Shown piece by piece: positions 3,659 through 38,906 of a stretch of DNA of 39,458 bases. The notes beneath the pieces are model-generated. The model did no database searches. It had not been told where the DNA came from and saw nothing but the letters and a program-made list of their open reading frames with translations. How positions within the stretch are numbered: position 1 is the first letter of the stretch; each line of letters begins with the position of its first letter. This stretch comes from a virus. Lineage: Duplodnaviria > Heunggongvirae > Uroviricota > Caudoviricetes. Both the position numbers and the translations under genes were made by a program. The stretch lies in the IMG/VR virus record IMGVR_UViG_2698536397_000026; one strand, written 5' to 3'.

Positions 3659-4591
3659 ATGACTGATATTAACGATGTAATCAAGACCATTGATGAACTT
3701 ATTGATGGCGGCGTACTGACGCAGTATGCCATCGCCAGAGAGGCGGGAATTTCCGACGGCACATTATCGGCTTTCCGTAAGGGAAAATATAAAGGCGATA
3801 ACGCTGCTGTGGCTGCTTCCCTGCGTTCCTGGTATGAGAACTGGAATAAACAAAGCGCACTGCCGGAACCGCCGCAGTTTGTGGAAACGCAGACAGTCCA
3901 GGAGCTGCGCGCACTGTTTCAGGCGGTTCGTCTGATGGGCTGTATTAACGTTATTGTGGGCGTACCGGGTGTGGGTAAAACGGCCACTGCCCGTAATTAC
4001 TGCCAGGAGCAACCAAACACCTGGATGATCACCCTGTCACCCGCGCACTCCAGCGTCACGGAGTGTCTGCTGGAGCTGGCCGATGCGCTGGGGATTGATT
4101 ACACCCGCGCGAACAAAGGGGCATTATCCCGCGCCATCCGCCGTCGCCTGATGGGAACGCGTGGACTGGTGATTGTGGATGAGGCGGATCATCTTGGTAT
4201 TGACGGTCTGGAGCAACTCCGGGCAATTCAGGACGCCACGGGGATCGGGATGGTGCTTATTGGTAACCCGCGCGGATTGTTTAAAGGTGGACGCCGCGCC
4301 TTTGATGATTTATCGCGCCTGTTCAGCCGTCTTGCCCGTACAAAACAACTTCGCAAGGCCAAAAAGGCGGATGTGCTGGCCATTGCCAGGGCGTGGGGGA
4401 TCAGTGGTGAGGCCGAGCTGGCCGTCATGCAGGCTATCGCTGAAAAGCCGGGAGCGTTACGCGTTCTGACACATACGCTTAACCAGGCGTGGCTCACCGC
4501 CAGCGGTGAAGGCGCGGCGCTGACAGAAAAACATATTAATGCGGCCTTTAAAGAGGTTTATACCAACCCTGAATTACTCTCACAGGTGTGA
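3659..4591 (+). CDS. B: transposition ATPase / target DNA activator (MuB-like)
   Basis: 310 aa; Walker A GVPGVGKT and Walker B LVIVDEAD; directly after transposase. Confidence 0.85.
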   Translation: MTDINDVIKTIDELIDGGVLTQYAIAREAGISDGTLSAFRKGKYKGDNAAVAASLRSWYENWNKQSALPEPPQFVETQTVQELRALFQAVRLMGCINVIVGVPGVGKTATARNYCQEQPNTWMITLSPAHSSVTECLLELADALGIDYTRANKGALSRAIRRRLMGTRGLVIVDEADHLGIDGLEQLRAIQDATGIGMVLIGNPRGLFKGGRRAFDDLSRLFSRLARTKQLRKAKKADVLAIARAWGISGEAELAVMQAIAEKPGALRVLTHTLNQAWLTASGEGAALTEKHINAAFKEVYTNPELLSQV

Positions 4592-4593
4592 TT

Positions 4594-4815
4594 ATGGCGG
4601 TATTTAATATTCCTGATATTTACGGACGCTTTTACCTGGTTAATTTCGATAACGTGAAGGTGATTTCACTGGCCGAAAATAAAGAATGTGGCGATTTACT
4701 TTTTGAATTTAATGACCGCACACGAATGGTGATATCTGCCGGACTTGATCGCGAAGGTGCGACAGACGTTTACAGCGGAATATGCCGTTCTGTTGGTGCG
4801 AAACAAGTCAGCTAA
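4594..4815 (+). CDS. hypothetical early protein (74 aa)
   Basis: ORF overlapping B stop (GTGATTATG); start at ATG 4594. Confidence 0.5.
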   Translation: MAVFNIPDIYGRFYLVNFDNVKVISLAENKECGDLLFEFNDRTRMVISAGLDREGATDVYSGICRSVGAKQVS

Positions 4816-32150: not shown

Positions 32151-33061
32151 TGTTTCATGTTGATAATAATTCCGGCGTGGCGAATATGCCTGCGCTGGCA
32201 CCGGCGCAGAGTAATACCACCACCTGGTTTACCGAAGGTGACGGACAAAAAGGTATCAGCTGGATTGGTCAGGACTGGCTGAATATTCTCCAGGCCGAAC
32301 TGCTGAATATTCTGGCTGAAGCCAGTATTCAGCCGGATAAGGCGCAGTTAAACCAGCTTACGCTGTCCATTAAAGCCATTATCGCTGCGAATGCCTTTTC
32401 CCGGAAAAACAACCTGAAAGAAATTGCTGATGCCGGTGCGGAAGCCCAGCGTCTTGCCCGTGGTTATCTTGGTCTTGGGGCGCTTGCCACAAAAAACAGT
32501 CTTGGTCCCGGTGACGTTAATGCTCTGGCGAAGGATCAGAACCTTGCCGACCTGGAGAATGCGGGAACCGCCCGTAATAATCTGGATGTTTACAGCAAAA
32601 GCGAAGGTGATAACCGTTACCTGCGCAGGGAGCAGAACGGCGCAGACATTCCGGATAAAGGCGCTTTTATCGATAACGTCGGTTTACGGGAAACGGTAAA
32701 TAAGGCTGCTGATGCCCTGCCATCGGGTGGAACCGCCGTGGCAGCAAACAGACTCGCCACCCCAAGAAATATTAATGGCGTTCCTTTTGACGGAACGCAG
32801 GATATCAACATCACGTCAGGAATGACGCAGTCAACCGCAGATGGCCGGTATGTACAGAATGTTCAGCTTGGAGCACAGAGCTATCATTCACCCGGAGGCA
32901 ATGAAATATCATGGAATTACAGCGCACCTTCCGGTTGTATGCTTTCCGGTATTAACGTGCAGGAAACCGGCTCCCGGTCTGCGGACAATATCGGTGGGGT
33001 CTATTATCGCCCGGTTCAGATTTATATTAATAATGCCTGGAGAACGGTAAGTTCAGTGTAA
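32150..33061 (+). CDS. tail fibre protein (constant N-terminal part plus invertible C-terminal cassette Sv)
   Basis: 303 aa; C-terminal region homologous to an oppositely oriented cassette at 33739..34093; gix-like site inside the gene at about 32679. Confidence 0.7.
   Translation: MFHVDNNSGVANMPALAPAQSNTTTWFTEGDGQKGISWIGQDWLNILQAELLNILAEASIQPDKAQLNQLTLSIKAIIAANAFSRKNNLKEIADAGAEAQRLARGYLGLGALATKNSLGPGDVNALAKDQNLADLENAGTARNNLDVYSKSEGDNRYLRREQNGADIPDKGAFIDNVGLRETVNKAADALPSGGTAVAANRLATPRNINGVPFDGTQDINITSGMTQSTADGRYVQNVQLGAQSYHSPGGNEISWNYSAPSGCMLSGINVQETGSRSADNIGGVYYRPVQIYINNAWRTVSSV
32670..32697. other. left gix-like inversion site (within tail fibre gene)
   Basis: TCGGTTTACGGGA shared in inverted orientation with the right site; one half-site degenerate. 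Confidence 0.45.
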
Positions 33062-33095
33062 ACCACAGAAAAGGGTGCTGAATGCACCCTCTGAA

Positions 33096-33617
33096 TTATT
33101 CCGGTTTTTCCGGCCAGGGAATCGCCTGGTAATGCCCCTCACTGGCAATATCATTAAAGTGCATTTCTTTAAGCTGTCGGATATACGCCATCCAGCGCGT
33201 CAGCTGTAATTTATTTTCATCGCTAATCATGTCCAGTTTTAATTCTGTTTTCCAGTCATCCACGGTTTCGTTGGCTTCCTGGAGCAGCGATGAGCGACGC
33301 TTTTCAGCAACCGTCTTCCAGTTTACCGGCACCTTTGATATCAGGCCATCAGAAAACTGCCAGTTACCGTCAATATTCACACCTTCCGGCAGTTCGTCCA
33401 CTTCAACAACAGTAAAACCTGCCGGATATAAAGCAGAGACATCTTCAGCAACAGAGCAGATAATACCCGTTACAGGCGAAATACAGAGTTTGTATTTCTT
33501 TGTGAAAAGCGGGATAGATTCATAAAAATCCCTTCCGTCCTCACTCTGGAAATACTGAACATCCTCACCATAGGGTTTGTGTTTCGGGTAATATCGTTTG
33601 ACATTAATCAGTTGCAT
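33096..33617 (-). CDS. tail fibre assembly protein (Tfa / U'-like)
   Basis: N-terminal region MQLINVKRYYPKHKPYGEDVQYFQSEDGRDFYE typical of Tfa chaperones; start probably at an internal Met (track ORF extends to 33668). Confidence 0.7.
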   Translation of the reverse strand: MQLINVKRYYPKHKPYGEDVQYFQSEDGRDFYESIPLFTKKYKLCISPVTGIICSVAEDVSALYPAGFTVVEVDELPEGVNIDGNWQFSDGLISKVPVNWKTVAEKRRSSLLQEANETVDDWKTELKLDMISDENKLQLTRWMAYIRQLKEMHFNDIASEGHYQAIPWPEKPE

Positions 33618-33738
33618 AAACATCACCATGTAAATCAATGATAAAAACAGGAATAATACTATCGCCATATACAGGCAATGCTTGTCTGAAATAACGCATA
33701 TTTCAGATGCTGGCTGCTGTGTGCTATGCCCCCGTTAA

Positions 33739-34172: not shown

Positions 34173-34733
34173 ATGCTGATTGGCTATATACGCGTATCAA
34201 CAAATGACCAGAACACAGGTTTACAAAGAAATGCGCTGGAATGTGCAGGATGTGAGCAGATTTTTGAAGATAAAATGAGCGGAAAAACAACGCAGCGGCC
34301 GGGACTGAAGCGGGCACTGAAGAAACTAAAACCCGGTGACACGCTGATGGTCTGGAAACTGGACAGGCTGGGGCGCAGTATGCGCCACCTTGTTGCGCTG
34401 ACAGATGAATTACAGCAACAGGGGATAAATTTTCGTAGTCTTACTGACAACATTGATACGTCAACCCCCATGGGGCGCTTCTTTTTTCACATAATGGGTG
34501 CGCTGGCAGAAATGGAGCGTGAATTAATTGTCGAACGGACACGGGCTGGTCTTGCAGCTGCCCGTGAAAGGGGACGAACCGGCGGCAGACCCCGTCGTCT
34601 CACGCAGGAACAATACGAGCAGGTCGGGCGTTTACTGGCCGGGGGTGTCAGTCGAAGACAGGTGGCACTTATTTTTGATATCGGCCTTTCAACCCTTTAT
34701 CGTTATTATCCTGCGAGCGTTTCGGAAAAATAA
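34173..34733 (+). CDS. gin: serine recombinase, DNA invertase (Gin/Hin/Cin family)
   Basis: 186 aa; MLIGYIRVSTNDQ... catalytic Ser motif and C-terminal HTH; RBS AAGGAAGG. Confidence 0.9.
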   Translation: MLIGYIRVSTNDQNTGLQRNALECAGCEQIFEDKMSGKTTQRPGLKRALKKLKPGDTLMVWKLDRLGRSMRHLVALTDELQQQGINFRSLTDNIDTSTPMGRFFFHIMGALAEMERELIVERTRAGLAAARERGRTGGRPRRLTQEQYEQVGRLLAGGVSRRQVALIFDIGLSTLYRYYPASVSEK

Positions 34734-34823: not shown

Positions 34824-36881
34824 ATGAATATTATGACGTCCAAATGGGTTCAACTATCATCAATGCCCGGAAACTTTACCGTTAAAGTTTCCGGTGGTAC
34901 AGCGGCATTTCTTGAGGCTCCCTTTCCTCCTGCTGAAACGAAAGGAGGAATGACATTTGCTGACTGTCTCATCAGTTTTAATACACAGGATTGCCTGTGG
35001 GTAAGGCCAGTATCCGGTGATCCGAACGTGGAAATTACCGGAGCGGGTATTGGTGCTGTCATTCCGTTAAGTGCTGATGTTGCCGGTACTACTGAACCGT
35101 CAGACTGGGATAATGCAGAAACACATACCCGTCCGGCAGGAAATGAAACTGCTTCCAGCTCCCCTTCCTGGTATTACGTGATTGTTATAGCCGGCCAGTC
35201 CAATGCTTCATCTTATGGTGAAGGGTTGCCCCTTCCGGATTCTTATGATCGTCCTGATCCACGTATTATGCAGCTGGCACGCAGGAATACACAAACCCCC
35301 GGAGGTATTCCCTGCAAATACAATGAAATCATTCCAGCAGATCACTGCCTTCATGATGTTCAGAATATGAGTCTGCTGAACCATCCAAAAGCAGACCTGA
35401 AAAAAGGGCAGTATGGTTGTGTGGGGCAGGGACTTCATATTGCGAAAAAAGTATTACCGGTGATTCCTGCTGATGCCGGGATTTTACTGGTTCCCTGTGC
35501 CCGTGGCGGCTCTGCTTTTACAACCGGCGCAGTTGGCTCATTCGATCCGGCAAGTGGTGCAGCCGAGGCGTCACTACGCTGGGGAGTGGATACCCCACTG
35601 TATCAGGATCTTGTCAGTCGAACTAAAGCGGCACTTGAGGCGAATCCAAAGAATGTGCTGTTATCTGTCGTATGGATTCAGGGGGAAGGAGACCTTAAAG
35701 CGACCCCGGCCCAGCATGGTGCCCAGTTTACTGCGATGGTGAAAAAATTCCGTGCGGATCTTGGTGCTTTCTCCGGTCAGTGTATTGGTGGTTCATCAGA
35801 CAGTGTGCCGTGGTTATGTGGTGACACAACCTATGACTGGAAAGAGAAGAACCCGGCGGCATATGAAACCATTTATAGCGGATATAAAAACCGGGCTTCC
35901 GAGAACATTCACTTTGTTCCACTGATGCACGATGAGTTCGGTAATAAAACCGCGACCAACCTGCCGGAGCACGACCCGGATATCGCTTCTGCCGGGTATT
36001 ATGGTGCGGAATCACGGGGAGATGGCAACTGGACAACAGCATCCAGGGCAACCCATTTTAGCTCCTGGGCGCGCCGTTTTCTGGTCTCAGATCGTTTTGC
36101 ATCAGCAATTCTTAAATATGCAGGTCTGACCTCTGCATTTATTGCCGGTGTGGCCCCTGATGGTGAAGCCCTGCCTCAGCCCGCGCCGGGTGGGAAACCG
36201 GAAGCGCCGACAGGTAGTCAGCCAGGAGGCAGTGAGTCCCCCCATCCGACATCCCCGTCACTCCGTACGCTGCTTTCACTTAAAGCATCAGCAGGAGAAG
36301 CCCCGGCTCAGGGCTGGAAAATTACAGATGGTACAATCCAGCTGACGGACGAAGGTAAAGCGTTGACCGTATCCAAACAAAGCGGAAAAACCTGGACGCT
36401 TACCCATGGAACTGATGCAGCCGGTGAACTTCTGAAGCATGGTGGTCAGTTGACCTGTAAATTCCGTCTGTCAGGTGAAGTAAAAGAAGGCCAGTTTGCT
36501 CTGGGTATTTACCTCCACACCGATACGGTCCCGGAAGGTGTAACCATGAGTGGTACAGGCACACCGTTCCTGATGGCGTATTATCTCCAGACAACAGGCG
36601 GCCAGTTAAATCTGATGCACCATAAAACAGGGGGGAATACGAAACTGGGATCATTTGGAGCCTACAATAACCAGTGGCATACACTTGTCCTGAAGTTTAC
36701 GGCGGGAAGTGCCCAGGTAACGCCTGTGCTGGATGGCACTCCGGGCCAGGCATTCCAGATGGTGAAAGATGCACTTTCCCCTGCCAAAGATACGCTGACA
36801 CTGACAGATGTCACCAAAGGGGCAACTTATGGCGTGTCTTTTGAGAGCGTTGTCCTTGAGGTTAATACCCCTGCGGCATAA
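34824..36881 (+). CDS. SASA/SGNH-family carbohydrate esterase (sialate O-acetylesterase-like) with Pro-rich linker and C-terminal beta-sandwich/lectin-like domain; cargo gene
   Basis: 685 aa; block I IAGQSNASSYGEG, block WIQGEGD, no N-terminal signal peptide; Pro-rich linker PQPAPGGKPEAPTGSQPGGSESPHPTSPS; not part of the Mu gene set. Confidence 0.65.
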   Translation: MNIMTSKWVQLSSMPGNFTVKVSGGTAAFLEAPFPPAETKGGMTFADCLISFNTQDCLWVRPVSGDPNVEITGAGIGAVIPLSADVAGTTEPSDWDNAETHTRPAGNETASSSPSWYYVIVIAGQSNASSYGEGLPLPDSYDRPDPRIMQLARRNTQTPGGIPCKYNEIIPADHCLHDVQNMSLLNHPKADLKKGQYGCVGQGLHIAKKVLPVIPADAGILLVPCARGGSAFTTGAVGSFDPASGAAEASLRWGVDTPLYQDLVSRTKAALEANPKNVLLSVVWIQGEGDLKATPAQHGAQFTAMVKKFRADLGAFSGQCIGGSSDSVPWLCGDTTYDWKEKNPAAYETIYSGYKNRASENIHFVPLMHDEFGNKTATNLPEHDPDIASAGYYGAESRGDGNWTTASRATHFSSWARRFLVSDRFASAILKYAGLTSAFIAGVAPDGEALPQPAPGGKPEAPTGSQPGGSESPHPTSPSLRTLLSLKASAGEAPAQGWKITDGTIQLTDEGKALTVSKQSGKTWTLTHGTDAAGELLKHGGQLTCKFRLSGEVKEGQFALGIYLHTDTVPEGVTMSGTGTPFLMAYYLQTTGGQLNLMHHKTGGNTKLGSFGAYNNQWHTLVLKFTAGSAQVTPVLDGTPGQAFQMVKDALSPAKDTLTLTDVTKGATYGVSFESVVLEVNTPAA

Positions 36882-36938
36882 TCGTGACGGCCGGGAATTT
36901 ATCCGGCTGTAACATCAGTTAATAAGAGTGAGGCTTAT

Positions 36939-37118
36939 ATGACATATATAAACGTCTGCCTGCTGTATTTCTGCACGGTGGTTTGTTGTCTGTTGCTTGT
37001 CAGCGGTGGTTATAAAATTATTCGCAATTATTTTCGAAATAAAATTGATGCAGCTGCCGAGGAAAAGATAAAAAGCGGTGCTGTAATGCCGCAGCCGAAA
37101 GACTCCGGTCAGATTTAA
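36939..37118 (+). CDS. small membrane peptide (59 aa)
   Basis: RBS GAGTGAGG; hydrophobic N-terminus VCLLYFCTVVCCLLLVSGG; below 60-aa track cut-off. Confidence 0.4.
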   Translation: MTYINVCLLYFCTVVCCLLLVSGGYKIIRNYFRNKIDAAAEEKIKSGAVMPQPKDSGQI

Positions 37119-37153
37119 TTTTTTGTGAACCAGAAAAGGAAAGGAGAATATTC

Positions 37154-37399
37154 ATGCCAGAGATTAAAGGCACGGTTACTGAAGAGCTTGTCAAACAGGC
37201 ACTTTATTCTGAAGAAGTGAACCGCGTGCTGAAGGCGCAGGTTCGCAAGGATTTTGAGGCACAAATCGACGCATATGTTGATGAAGTGCTGGCCCGAATG
37301 GTTGGTCGTTCTCCGGCTGAAAACAGCACGGAAAATGAGCCTCAACCCGTAGAGCAACCAGAGCCGGTTCAACCCGGAACTGACGGTACTATGATGTAA
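37154..37399 (+). CDS. hypothetical acidic protein (81 aa)
   Basis: RBS AAGGAAAGGAG before ATG; followed by hairpin. Confidence 0.45.
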   Translation: MPEIKGTVTEELVKQALYSEEVNRVLKAQVRKDFEAQIDAYVDEVLARMVGRSPAENSTENEPQPVEQPEPVQPGTDGTMM

Positions 37400-37408
37400 C
37401 AATACCGA

Positions 37409-37428
37409 CCGGCAGGTTTCCCTGCCGG
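37409..37428. terminator. hairpin (CCGGCAGG-TTTC-CCTGCCGG) between convergent small genes
   Basis: Perfect 8-bp stem; short T-containing tail on + strand. Confidence 0.4.
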
Positions 37429-37437
37429 GTGAATTTG

Positions 37438-37608
37438 TTAATGCACGTTTTGTGTATTTTCCCTCCGGGGAGAACAGGCCGGACATATCAGCATCCTGAA
37501 ACAGGAAGCATTTTTTGGTTTGTATGTCTTGCCATTTTGAGATCGAGAACGGCGATAGATGAGCTGTAAGGGAGTCTTACAGGCAGGGCAAACAGGCTCT
37601 TTATCCAT
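37438..37608 (-). CDS. candidate small zinc-ribbon protein (56 aa)
   Basis: Minus-strand ORF with perfect AAGGAG 9 nt upstream of ATG; two CPAC motifs about 30 aa apart; basic. Confidence 0.35.
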   Translation of the reverse strand: MDKEPVCPACKTPLQLIYRRSRSQNGKTYKPKNASCFRMLICPACSPRRENTQNVH

Positions 37609-37716
37609 GATAAAGATCTCCTTTTTATGCATCTCTGCTTTACAGGAGACCGGGGAATATCATAGGATACGCCACGAGCTCGAAGTAAAGCATTGATGCA
37701 AGTTTTTACAGATTGA

Positions 37717-37752
37717 CCCAGCATAGTTCCAGCTATGCTGGGTTTCCCTTTT
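37717..37752 (+). terminator. strong rho-independent terminator upstream of com-mom control region
   Basis: Perfect 10-bp stem CCCAGCATAG / CTATGCTGGG, 6-nt loop, followed by TTTCCCTTTT. Confidence 0.6.
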
Positions 37753-37794
37753 ATGTAGTATCCTGTTGATTTGAAACATACTACATATACGCGC

Positions 37795-37844
37795 GATCCT
37801 ACCTTCACTGTATAAAAAGTCAATAAAATGATCATTTTATGATC
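37795..37844. promoter_or_regulatory. cluster of three GATC (Dam) sites upstream of com; candidate methylation-sensitive mom control region
   Basis: GATC at 37795, 37830, 37841 within 50 bp in an AT-rich region; Mu mom is known to be controlled by Dam methylation of three upstream GATC sites. Confidence 0.4.
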
Positions 37845-38014
37845 GTTTTCACCACCTAACTCTTCGTTTCTTTAAGTAAATAATCACCGCCCTGAATCAT
37901 TGTTGATGACTTTTAAATCTATTTGTTGTATCAATTAAACAAATCGAATCGATCGTTTTTGTCGATCGATTGCATGAGAAAGGCATCAACAACAAAGCAG
38001 GAGGTTATGCGGCC

Positions 38015-38215
38015 ATGTATCGAAACATACGGTGCCGACACTGCAATAAGCTACTGGCACGGGCCAGTTTCAGTTATCTGGAAGTAAAATGTCCGCGCTG
38101 TAAAACCCTCAATCAAATCACATCTCCGAGCGCCACAGAGCACCCCACATACACAAGGAAATCCTGTCGTGGGGAACAGAAAGCAAGTCACATCCCGTAT
38201 CATCAGCACGCCTGA
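38015..38215 (+). CDS. com: Com-like zinc-finger translational activator of mom
   Basis: [30 protein letters not shown] closely parallels Mu Com zinc finger as I recall it; RBS AGGAGG; overlaps downstream mom-like ORF. Confidence 0.8.
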
Positions 38216-38906
38216 ACTTATTCGCTATAACGACAATATCGTTGGTTATGGCTCCCGTGAGTTGCGGGTTGAGACAATAAGTTGCTGGCTGGCCAGACTG
38301 GTTATCGTCAATAAACATTACAGCCACCGTTTCGTAAATAATTCCTACCTTCATCTGGGTATATTTTCAGAACGGGAACTTGTTGGCGTAATGCAATGGG
38401 GTTACGCCCTTAACCCAAACAGTGGTGCACGCGTCGTAACGGGTACGCAGAACCGAGAATATATGGAGCTTAACCGGCTATGGATGCATGACTGTATGCC
38501 GAGAAACTCCGAATCAAGGGCAATCAGTTACGCGCTCAAGCTAATCAGGCAGCTTTATCCGCAGGTACAGTGGGTTCAGTCGTTTGCAGATGAGCGTTGT
38601 GGCTGTCTTGGTGTCGTGTATCAGGCAAGCAATTTTGATTATGTAGGCAGCCATGAATCAACATTCTATGAACTTGATGGCGAGTGGTATCACGAGATTT
38701 GCAGGAGTGCCATTAAACGAGGCGGACAACGAGGTGAACATCTGAGGGCTAATATCGACAGAGCCAGTGTGCATAAGTTCCGACAGTTTCGTTACATCCG
38801 GTTTCTGAACAAGAGGGCCAGAAAACGCCTCAACACAAAGCTATTCAAAGTCCAGCCTTACCCAAAACCACAAACAGTTAAAACTGGTTTGAAAGAGAGT
38901 GAATGA
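38169..38906 (+). CDS. mom: Mom-like DNA modification protein; start codon uncertain
   Basis: 245-aa ORF overlapping com 3' end, last gene before right end, exactly as Mu mom; track start is GTG. Confidence 0.65.

Follow-up and report, generated by a model that had tools for sequence, protein, structure and literature searches.

An Sp18-type Mu-like prophage carries, between gin and com, a cargo esterase followed by a cluster of very small genes, which raises the question of whether these genes form one accessory module or belong to units of different origin. The stretch of DNA analyzed here (the window; 39,458 nucleotides) corresponds over its whole length to such a prophage. The initial annotation had grouped a 59-aa membrane peptide, an 81-aa acidic protein and a convergent 56-aa zinc-ribbon ORF with the esterase as an independently transcribed module distinct from the late functions of Mu, and had suggested that the zinc-ribbon ORF might encode a second Com/Ogr-like regulator. 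Re-reading of the sequence located the three ORFs, their ribosome-binding sites and an 8-bp hairpin at the coordinates that it had given. The account that we favor, and consider probable, is a joint one: a transferred esterase cassette, and beside it a separate and real zinc-ribbon gene with its own leader, housed in a replaceable slot. These two unrelated units, which lie in part within the interval, would meet at the hairpin at 37409-37428. We found no mention of ECs4993-ECs4998 in the literature, and in a 2026 EHEC sRNA paper Sp18 comes up only on account of its excision.

The esterase cassette

Whether prophage sialate esterases serve Shiga-toxin-producing E. coli as a growth factor has been a subject of study. 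The esterase of the window (34824..36881, plus strand; start at 34863 according to PGAP) is of the NanS-p type, a class whose reaction takes the 9-O-acetyl group off Neu5,9Ac2, and is described as signal-less. Taking the gathering score of each Pfam family as the threshold for membership, it contains the catalytic SASA/SGNH domain (PF03629; 51.3 bits, cut-off 24.8) together with the C-terminal domain, CTR, now DUF6645 (PF20350; 90.9 bits, cut-off 27). It shares 51% identity with VT2-Sakai NanS-p across aa 71-681, while its N-terminal ~70 aa are unrelated, residues 1-70 remaining unaligned to that protein. No Pfam match to DUF1737 was obtained in this N-terminus at E<=1; in the NanS-p of 933W, DUF1737 spans aa 3-53 (PMC10462455).

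The ORF directly downstream (36939-37118, plus strand), with GAGG 5 nt 5′ of its ATG, encodes a 59-aa single-pass membrane peptide of pI 8.8, in which hydrophobic residues 4-22 (mean Kyte-Doolittle value of 2.46 over 19 residues) precede a basic segment. It belongs to the DUF1378 family (PF07125; 83.8 bits versus a cut-off of 25, residues 1-48 of 59) and to PHROG 494 (E 4e-29), is 53% identical to its VT2-Sakai counterpart, and has the family's size and N-terminal hydrophobic helix; as in VT2-Sakai and PhiR12_2, it comes directly after a prophage SASA esterase. The following ORF (37154-37399, plus strand), with AAGGAG 7 nt 5′ of its ATG, encodes an 81-aa protein of pI 4.4 (D+E = 16 versus K+R = 8) from the DUF826 family (PF05696; 56.5 bits versus a cut-off of 25, residues 1-52; PHROG 311, E 5e-30). 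Its N-terminal 52 aa are conserved and are followed by a P/E/Q-rich tail, and it is 47% identical to the VT2-Sakai protein. The description of the pair as a membrane peptide and an acidic protein holds, and Pfam scores far over threshold show that the two ORFs are no chance occurrences. Neither protein has a match in PADLOC.

The order esterase-DUF1378-DUF826-holin is found in PhiR12_2 and VT2-Sakai, that is, in Stx and lambdoid phages. In Shiga-toxin phages the three-gene block sits between stx and holin S, and DUF826/DUF1378 ORFs have been recorded between nanS-p and S (PMC10462455). Judged from gene order, the trio is thus an already known arrangement. The numbers of phage records matching its three members are similar (347, 309 and 306, with an equal organism breakdown; records were counted, not genomes). 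For Stx1a phages, about 20 records match the esterase without a corresponding rise in DUF1378/DUF826 matches, so the trio is not invariable. With that reservation, sequence comparison identifies DUF1378 and DUF826, known and uncharacterised, as fixed downstream partners of prophage NanS-p-type sialate O-acetylesterases.

That the esterase and the two plus-strand small ORFs are packaged together, as initially claimed, is corroborated by this gene order and by the similar divergence of the three genes; the view that the module does not serve Mu functions agrees with the gin-com gap of phage Mu, which measures just 94 nt. It is proposed that a Mu-like phage acquired the trio, in one piece, between gin and com from a lambdoid/Stx-type late operon. 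As the holin did not come along, the two small proteins would work with the esterase and not with the lysis genes. As a guess, DUF1378 and DUF826 could be a pair anchored in the membrane that influences the site or the timing at which the signal-less esterase becomes available. The movement of the block as a unit between lambdoid and Mu-like phages, which are unrelated types, without lysis genes, speaks for a tie of DUF1378 and DUF826 to the esterase, a link that gives these two long-standing domains of unknown function a concrete experimental lead.

The hairpin between the convergent genes

The plus-strand cassette and the minus-strand ORF are separated by a perfect 8-bp hairpin at 37409..37428, CCGGCAGG-TTTC-CCTGCCGG, a GC-rich stem-loop in which seven of the eight pairs are G-C. 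Its folding energy is -17.1 kcal/mol on the plus strand (z -3.0) and -20.8 kcal/mol on the minus strand (z -4.7). The T-tracts are weak on both strands (tails GTGAATTTGTT on the plus and TCGGTATTGTT on the minus strand), and the hairpin is not listed by the terminator scan, which needs five T in eight. It is kept in nearly all alleles bearing the zinc-ribbon ORF, and is probably a two-way transcription stop with weak U-tracts.

The zinc-ribbon ORF

The minus-strand ORF at 37438..37608 (ATG at 37608, stop at 37438-37440) encodes a basic protein of 56 aa (pI 9.8) with two CPAC motifs, C7/C10 and C42/C45, in a CPAC-N31-CPAC arrangement. Its Shine-Dalgarno sequence, AAGGAG at 37618..37623, lies 9 nt upstream of the ATG and is identical in Salmonella. 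The program-made ORF listing starts the ORF earlier, at an in-frame ATG (37632) without a Shine-Dalgarno sequence, which makes it 64 aa long. The common Sakai-type allele needs a second ATG, 13 nt from the Shine-Dalgarno.

Comparison of synonymous with nonsynonymous changes, the check suggested at the outset, indicates that this reading frame is conserved in relatives. Within E. coli the 11 substitutions show an excess of synonymous change (7 synonymous, 4 nonsynonymous) when read in the ORF's own frame, and in no other (binomial P of 7 or more synonymous = 0.004); the ratio is 0.17 in this frame versus 0.7-1.4 in the five others. Against Salmonella, dN/dS is 0.17 and the indels are multiples of three. 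Moreover, the ORF is intact, at 53-56 aa, in all 12 distinct allele sequences (10 from E. coli and 2 from Salmonella), one of which (L015) carries C7Y within the first cysteine pair. On these substitution patterns the ORF looks like a real gene. An antisense ORF of 46 aa (37429-37569, plus strand) was also considered and was rejected, as no frame shows selection.

The family is an orphan one. Just 4 clusters were found among 1.84 billion representative proteins; GTDB species-representative genomes yielded neither relatives of the protein nor an exact match to a leader 21-mer, a word-indexed protein search recovered only the Salmonella cluster itself, and an NCBIfam search found nothing. PADLOC gave no match for the protein, its Salmonella homologue or the alternative ORFs of the same slot. 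The Salmonella homologue (P0004), 47% identical, retains GKTYxPK, CPxCSP and all four cysteines of what would be a generic zinc ribbon with two CPxC knuckles, the first knuckle being altered by C7Y in that one E. coli allele. An AlphaFold2 model built from only 3 sequences has four beta-strands (pLDDT 79); because fold searches returned no significant match, the term "zinc ribbon" rests on the motifs and on this three-sequence model. Both the window protein (E 0.009) and the Salmonella homologue (E 0.012) show weak, nearly full-length matches to PHROG 9584, a family of 59-aa phage proteins; since neither match reaches a safe threshold and no function is known for the family, they add no mechanism.

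A replaceable slot beside com-mom

The proposed membership of this ORF in the esterase module did not survive comparison with other prophages. In two Salmonella Mu-like prophages, which have neither esterase nor gin, the homologue is encoded on the strand opposite to com, at a distance of ~390 nt; conversely, the esterase trio is present and the zinc-ribbon ORF absent in L028 and L029, two Mu-like prophages of E. coli. As each occurs without the other, placing the ORF in the cassette was rejected. In the loci compared, it travels with a conserved leader adjoining the com-mom control region, and not with the esterase. Among sister prophages with near-identical com-mom, some that have the same leader bear an unrelated 45-68-aa ORF in the slot, and some have nothing there. 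The zinc-ribbon gene would be carried in a replaceable slot that is read leftward, in the direction away from com-mom, and it is not a core Mu function. Its product may be an accessory factor, small and able to bind nucleic acid, that serves in regulation or in anti-defence and whose synthesis its own leader controls post-transcriptionally. The slot varies between sister prophages and offers a reasonable hunting ground for small accessory or anti-defence genes.

The leftward unit is proposed to comprise a promoter candidate (37823-37796), a leader of ~180 nt with three hairpins, a strong Shine-Dalgarno and an end at the shared hairpin. The candidate, a sigma-70-like TTGACT-16-TAGGAT on the minus strand (37796..37823), matches 9 of 12 consensus positions, which alone is no better than chance, such matches occurring in the region at the shuffled expectation; both hexamers are conserved in Salmonella amid otherwise diverged sequence, and a GATC overlaps the -10. 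The leader as a whole folds with a z of -5.7. Hairpin H1 (37752..37787; ATGTAGTAT...ATACTACAT) has a conserved stem and a loop that differs in Salmonella, and H2 (37715..37744; 11-13 bp) occurs in relatives in four stem versions, all of which pair (-12.8 to -22 kcal/mol). H3 (37628..37700, minus strand), a long imperfect inverted repeat of -31.4 kcal/mol (z -6.75), ends 4 nt before the Shine-Dalgarno. The segment from H3 to the ATG is 85% identical to Salmonella, versus 58% for the coding sequence; by this measure, the leader is better conserved than the gene it precedes. H3 differs from its Salmonella counterpart by one compensatory pair and three G-U changes. In H1 and H3 together, 2 pairs change on both sides, a value reached by 14 of 500 shuffles; this formal covariation count is weak because most pairs are invariant. 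An Rfam scan of 36700-38200 at E<=10 gave chance-level matches only, the best being tsr24 with 19.9 bits versus a gathering score of 50. At loci with an alternative cassette the H1-H3 leader is retained with a different Shine-Dalgarno and coding sequence, the loci diverging from the 3′ end of H3 onward except for a common ATGGATAAA start.

Upstream of the promoter candidate lies the GATC-rich com-mom control region (37829..37971), which has four GATC sites and shares AAATCGATCG-N7-GATCGATT with the Mu Pmom region, followed by com (38015..38215, plus strand), divergent from the zinc-ribbon unit and recognized by Zn_ribbon_Com (PF10122; 46.8 bits, E 2e-12). In Mu, mom is under Dam/OxyR control and the region contains a divergent promoter, momP2 (PMC3378877, PMC4287176), which overlaps momP1, faces the end of gin and has no known product (PMC4287176, PMC3378877).

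Alternative readings of the leader and the small protein

It is possible, at a rather low probability, that H1-H3 have a plus-strand role as insulators or attenuators instead of serving as a leader for the small ORF, stopping rightward read-through from gin, the esterase cassette or small-ORF antisense transcription before it reaches the toxic com-mom operon. H2 has a terminator-like match followed by a T-rich run on the plus strand only, and its L002-type version forms the more stable stem on that strand (-17.8 versus -12.8 kcal/mol). The expression of mom is cytotoxic and heavily guarded in Mu (PMC3378877), and a second stop would be useful because the U-tracts of the hairpin at 37409-37428 are poor. 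The folding energies of H3 are equal on both strands. Nevertheless, its Salmonella changes are G-U pairs on the minus-strand RNA that would be A-C mismatches on the plus strand, and H3 abuts the Shine-Dalgarno of the minus-strand ORF, where it is retained with whichever ORF fills the slot, both of which favor the leader. Insulation would concern the leader only, and is compatible with the zinc-ribbon ORF being real.

A function of the zinc-ribbon protein as a Com- or Ogr-like regulator of the com-mom operon or of late genes appears unlikely. Com is an RNA-binding zinc-finger translational activator of mom, and Ogr is a zinc-finger transcription activator. The small size of the protein, its basic character (pI 9.8) and its four cysteines would suit such a role, as would a gene divergent from com beside the GATC-rich control region, at a place corresponding to that of Mu momP2, for which no gene is known (PMC4287176, PMC3378877). 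However, neither the 56-aa nor the 64-aa form has a Pfam match to Zn_ribbon_Com (PF10122) or Ogr_Delta at E<=1, homology to either protein is not detectable, and BLASTP against Com finds only a 13-residue CPxCKT match. The cysteine spacing, CxxC-N31-CxxC versus the CxxC-N16-CxxC of the Com finger, also differs. Because sister prophages with near-identical com-mom replace the ORF or have nothing in its place, the protein cannot be required for com-mom control. Of the initial suggestion of a second Com/Ogr-like regulator, family membership consequently falls, and a regulatory role is possible.

A bolder reading, which we regard as quite improbable, holds that the ~180-nt element is an undescribed control RNA of Sp18-type Mu-like phages, a conserved expression platform, divergent from com-mom, driving any small gene in the slot, and that the zinc-ribbon protein represents a novel factor in anti-defence or regulation. 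Dam methylation, through the GATC in the -10, and an antisense RNA or attenuation might then govern the element. Were this so, the zinc-ribbon factor would belong to an anti-restriction island of which com-mom, or com-Dcm methylase, forms the other arm.

Very little probability attaches to the idea that the leader, the small ORF and an antisense RNA constitute a type I toxin-antitoxin-like or antisense-controlled module, in which a plus-strand RNA of ~80 nt, running from 37639-37668 to H2 and its T-run, would pair with the leader. A plus-strand TTTACA-18-TAGGAT site and the terminator-like H2 with its T-run, both conserved in Salmonella, speak for it, as do the long structured 5′ leader before a very small ORF and the exchangeable ORF of the slot. 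Yet the protein is hydrophilic and basic (GRAVY -0.88) with no hydrophobic stretch such as a hydrophobic toxin would have, three of the four H2 versions are followed by a weak T-run, and Rfam gives no match. The promoter-like hexamers, moreover, fall inside H3, so their conservation is explained by H3 itself.

Finally, it is very unlikely that the zinc-ribbon ORF is the C-terminal remnant of a 154-aa gene (ECs_4996; PHROG 26524), frameshifted and dead in the window. In its favor, PGAP calls a frameshifted hypothetical protein matching 37438-37900 (minus strand) in a 100%-identical E. coli copy (NZ_CP027368.1); ECs_4996 of Sakai is an uninterrupted 154-aa ORF, and the 115-aa upstream frame matches PHROG 26524 (E 1.7e-61). 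But the fusion of leader and zinc-ribbon ORF is confined to one allele class and stems from a single extra G at the ATG (+1) in the Sakai allele, and the upstream long frame differs in nearly every allele (14, 56, 99, 106, 135, 137 and 154 aa) and lacks a start in Salmonella, in contrast to the 53-56-aa ORF, which no allele disrupts. The upstream frame would also cross the promoter candidate and three conserved hairpins, the substitutions are specific for the frame of the short ORF, and a PHROG match is what one would expect had the same spurious ORF been called in earlier annotations. On the variation in frame length among alleles, the 115-aa and 154-aa minus-strand frames were rejected as genes. 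The 154-aa model of ECs_4996 and the PGAP frameshifted pseudogene of NZ_CP027368.1 are most likely artefacts of annotation. A 56-aa gene and a leader that is structured and non-coding most likely lie concealed beneath ECs_4996, beneath the PHROG derived from it and beneath the frameshifted-pseudogene calls of related genomes, which occur in every zinc-ribbon-type RefSeq copy inspected. The general view of Mu biology is unchanged by the favored account unless the leader or the small protein proves to have a new function.

Comparison with known systems

The cassette resembles the nanS-p/DUF1378/DUF826 block of Shiga-toxin phages (VT2-Sakai orf42 to holin S; 933W) in its genes, their order and their Pfam families. 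The products measure 645, 59 and 81 aa in VT2-Sakai and 685, 59 and 81 aa in the window, with identities of 51, 53 and 47%. The known block lies between stx/Q and the holin and is followed by holin S, whereas in the window, a transposable phage of the Mu type, the block is flanked by gin and com, and after it come a hairpin and a convergent gene. In addition, the esterase of the window does not have the N-terminal DUF1737 of the 933W NanS-p, and control by the Q antiterminator, as for the Stx-phage block, cannot apply here.

Like the zinc-ribbon protein, Mu Com is a small, basic, four-cysteine protein encoded at a Mu-type right end near the mom control region. The two differ in that there is no sequence relationship between them and their cysteine pairs are spaced by 31 versus 16 residues; furthermore, the zinc-ribbon gene lies on the strand opposite to com and is dispensable in sister phages. 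As for momP2 of Mu, it directs leftward transcription from the region upstream of com, as the promoter candidate of the window would do. While momP2 overlaps momP1, the candidate is ~190-220 nt away from the start codon of com, and downstream of it come a structured leader and a small ORF that is conserved. Between the two regions the GATC cluster alone aligns, and the promoters are likened by position.

Right-End Organization of the Prophage

The window is a Mu-like prophage of the type represented by Sp18 in E. coli O157 Sakai. Positions 36800-38000 are 100% identical to several STEC chromosomes, Sp18 shares 98.4% identity over 37400-38014, and at least 80% of this last interval is present in 201 of 5,426 complete E. 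coli genomes. At the right end, gin (34173-34733) is followed by an esterase gene of 685 codons (34824-36881), three small ORFs, com (38015-38215) and mom (38169-38906), and all the features listed for this region in the initial annotation were found at their positions. As gin and com are separated by only 94 nt in phage Mu, the stretch from 34734 to about 37800 is extra relative to Mu.

The Esterase Cassette

The 59-aa plus-strand ORF (36939-37118), in which hydrophobic residues 4-22 are followed by basic residues, is a member of Pfam DUF1378 (83.8 bits; PHROG 494), and the acidic 81-aa ORF (37154-37399, plus strand; pI 4.4) is a member of DUF826 (56.5 bits; PHROG 311). In the lambdoid phages PhiR12_2 and VT2-Sakai, the NanS-p esterase precedes the same two genes in the same order, and then holin S; DUF826 and DUF1378 ORFs between nanS-p and S are also mentioned in a paper on Stx2a phages (PMC10462455), so that the arrangement is already known. 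The identities to the VT2-Sakai counterparts are similar (esterase 51%, DUF1378 53%, DUF826 47%), as would be expected from inheritance as one unit. Phage-collection records number 347 for the esterase, 309 for DUF1378 and 306 for DUF826, with a nearly equal organism breakdown, except for about 20 Stx1a phages, whose esterase hits are not accompanied by a corresponding increase for DUF1378 and DUF826. Gene order and identities both uphold the proposal that the small plus-strand genes are packaged with the cargo esterase. Since the block arrived in a Mu-like genome without the holin, it is tempting to suggest that the two small proteins function together with the esterase and not in lysis.

The esterase of the window differs from NanS-p at the N-terminus: it lacks DUF1737, and over its first ~70 residues it bears no relation to NanS-p; residues 1-70 (34824-35033) have no family match. 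Its start codon varies with the source, being placed at 34863 by PGAP, at the equivalent of 34833 in the Sakai annotation and at 34824 in the ORF listing. The 33.7-kb myovirus record ON470599.1 (vB_EcoM-569R5) ends inside an esterase homologue (32434-33678, 55% identity), which is truncated as a result, and may be another Mu-like phage with the cassette at its right end.

A Probable Gene on the Opposite Strand

The minus-strand ORF (37438-37608) encodes a basic 56-aa protein (pI 9.8) with two CPAC motifs, and AAGGAG lies 9 nt upstream of its ATG. From 1.84 billion representative proteins, HMMER retrieved only four clusters, three of them near-identical E. coli alleles and the fourth the Salmonella homologue P0004, a 53-aa protein with 47% identity that keeps all four cysteines as well as the GKTYxPK and CPxCSP motifs. 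The comparison of synonymous and non-synonymous substitutions proposed in the initial annotation supports the ORF: among six E. coli alleles, seven synonymous and four non-synonymous differences give a ratio of 0.17 in this frame versus 0.7-1.4 in the five other frames (binomial P = 0.004 for seven or more synonymous changes out of 11). Against Salmonella, dN/dS is 0.17 with dS saturated, and each of the two indels has a length divisible by three. The ORF is probably a real gene. The identity of its product as a zinc ribbon is likely, albeit not proven, and our best guess is that it would act as a small nucleic-acid-binding accessory factor, either a regulator or an anti-defence protein. Between the convergent genes, the hairpin at 37409-37428 has a perfect 8-bp stem (-17.1 kcal/mol on the plus strand, -20.8 kcal/mol on the minus strand). 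It has poor T-tracts and is absent from the terminator scan output.

A Variable Slot between DUF826 and com

In two Salmonella Mu-like prophages, P0004 occupies the same position on the strand opposite com, ~390 nt away, with mom or a Dcm-type methylase downstream of com; neither prophage has the esterase or gin. Conversely, the Mu-like prophages of E. coli AST198 and JE86-ST02 carry the esterase trio and lack the zinc-ribbon ORF. The single accessory module initially envisaged must therefore be divided: the plus-strand pair stays as cargo partners of the esterase, whereas the zinc-ribbon ORF stands apart as what looks like a real orphan gene, preceded by a structured leader that has escaped annotation. 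STEC1587, FORC_029 and STEC2018-607 contain an unrelated minus-strand ORF (MDKLTTDQK...), 45 aa long in the first strain and 68 aa in the second and third, together with an extra 66-aa plus-strand ORF. Because its ORF content differs or is missing among relatives, the stretch from DUF826 to com represents a variable slot.

In Salmonella (L011, 6362-7274), the zinc-ribbon ORF ends at a clear terminator of its own, and three further ORFs (100, 81 and 122 aa) follow on the same strand. The product of the 100-aa ORF appears by eye to be related to the 97-aa ORF found in the slot of JE86-ST02 (L029, 3546-3839), and that of the 122-aa ORF has a match in PHROG 5954 (E 5e-17).

The Upstream Frame and the Structured Leader

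In the 100%-identical copy NZ_CP027368.1, PGAP annotates the equivalent of 37438-37900 (minus strand) as a frameshifted pseudogene, a call explained by the open 154-aa frame of Sakai ECs_4996. The alignment reveals one extra G directly after ATGGAT in the Sakai allele, which fuses the upstream frame to the zinc-ribbon frame. Depending on the allele, the upstream frame measures 14, 56, 99, 106, 135, 137 or 154 aa; in Salmonella it lacks a start. The short zinc-ribbon ORF is intact in 12 of 12 alleles; those with the +1 change have a second ATG four bases downstream, yielding MKEPVC... (55 aa). The match of a 115-aa upstream frame to PHROG 26524 most likely reflects the repeated calling of one spurious ORF.

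The region of the upstream frame (37609-37830, minus strand) contains a promoter-like TTGACT-16-TAGGAT (37823-37796), whose -10 is overlapped by a GATC, and three hairpins read on the minus strand, H1 (37752-37787), H2 (37715-37744) and the long H3 (37628-37700), whose end lies immediately upstream of the Shine-Dalgarno sequence. The promoter match by itself is at chance level, and the promoter is a candidate. The GATC (37796-37801) is present in most alleles and lost (GATT) in two loci, L013 and L015, so any Dam-dependence would not be universal. The leader, 196 nt long, has a folding energy of -64.5 kcal/mol (z -5.7; H3 alone, z -6.75), and E. coli and Salmonella share 85% identity from H3 to the ATG versus 58% in the CDS. 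H2 exists in four stem versions, every one paired (-12.8 to -22 kcal/mol); formal covariation is weak in H1 and H3, as most of their pairs never vary. Loci with an alternative cassette retain the H1-H3 leader with a different Shine-Dalgarno sequence and CDS, the divergence starting at the 3' end of H3, save for a shared ATGGATAAA start. In strains STEC1587 and STEC2018-607, a 79-nt tandem duplication (L004 ~4570-4650, and L010; equivalent to 37690-37760) adds a second, different H2 version and an H3 5' arm.

The stability of H3 is equal on both strands, and it is possible that the hairpins act on the plus strand, either as a barrier that shields the toxic com-mom operon or by terminating a short antisense RNA. 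The T-run of H2 and its better pairing in one allele favor the plus strand; G-U pairs in Salmonella favor the minus strand. The interest of the locus would grow if either leader or protein had a new function.

Comparison with the com-mom Region of Mu

In Mu, the divergent promoter momP2, which has no known product, overlaps Pmom (PMC4287176, PMC3378877). Alignment between Mu and the window is limited to the GATC cluster AAATCGATCG-N7-GATCGATT, and hence the leftward promoter candidate cannot be called the counterpart of momP2. The GATC inverted repeat lies only 44 nt from the com start codon (37947-38014, compared with 2150-2270 in Mu, L030), and neither the Mu C-protein box (ATTATGCCCCAATAAC) nor the T6-TAAGAT -10 is recognisable in 37947-38014; judging from these sequences, the Sp18-type mom promoter layout must differ from that of Mu.

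The suggestion of a second Com/Ogr-like regulator finds no support in sequence, as no relationship between the zinc-ribbon protein and Com or Ogr could be detected. The ORF is replaced or missing in sister phages retaining com-mom, so that it is unlikely to be essential for the control of mom. In sister Mu-like prophages of E. coli and Salmonella, the same com is followed by a 350-aa Dcm-type DNA cytosine methyltransferase (L002 6033-7085; L006 2273-3325; L028 4288-5340; L011 4398-5450) that replaces the mom found at 38169-38906 in the window. The right end behaves as an exchangeable anti-restriction module.
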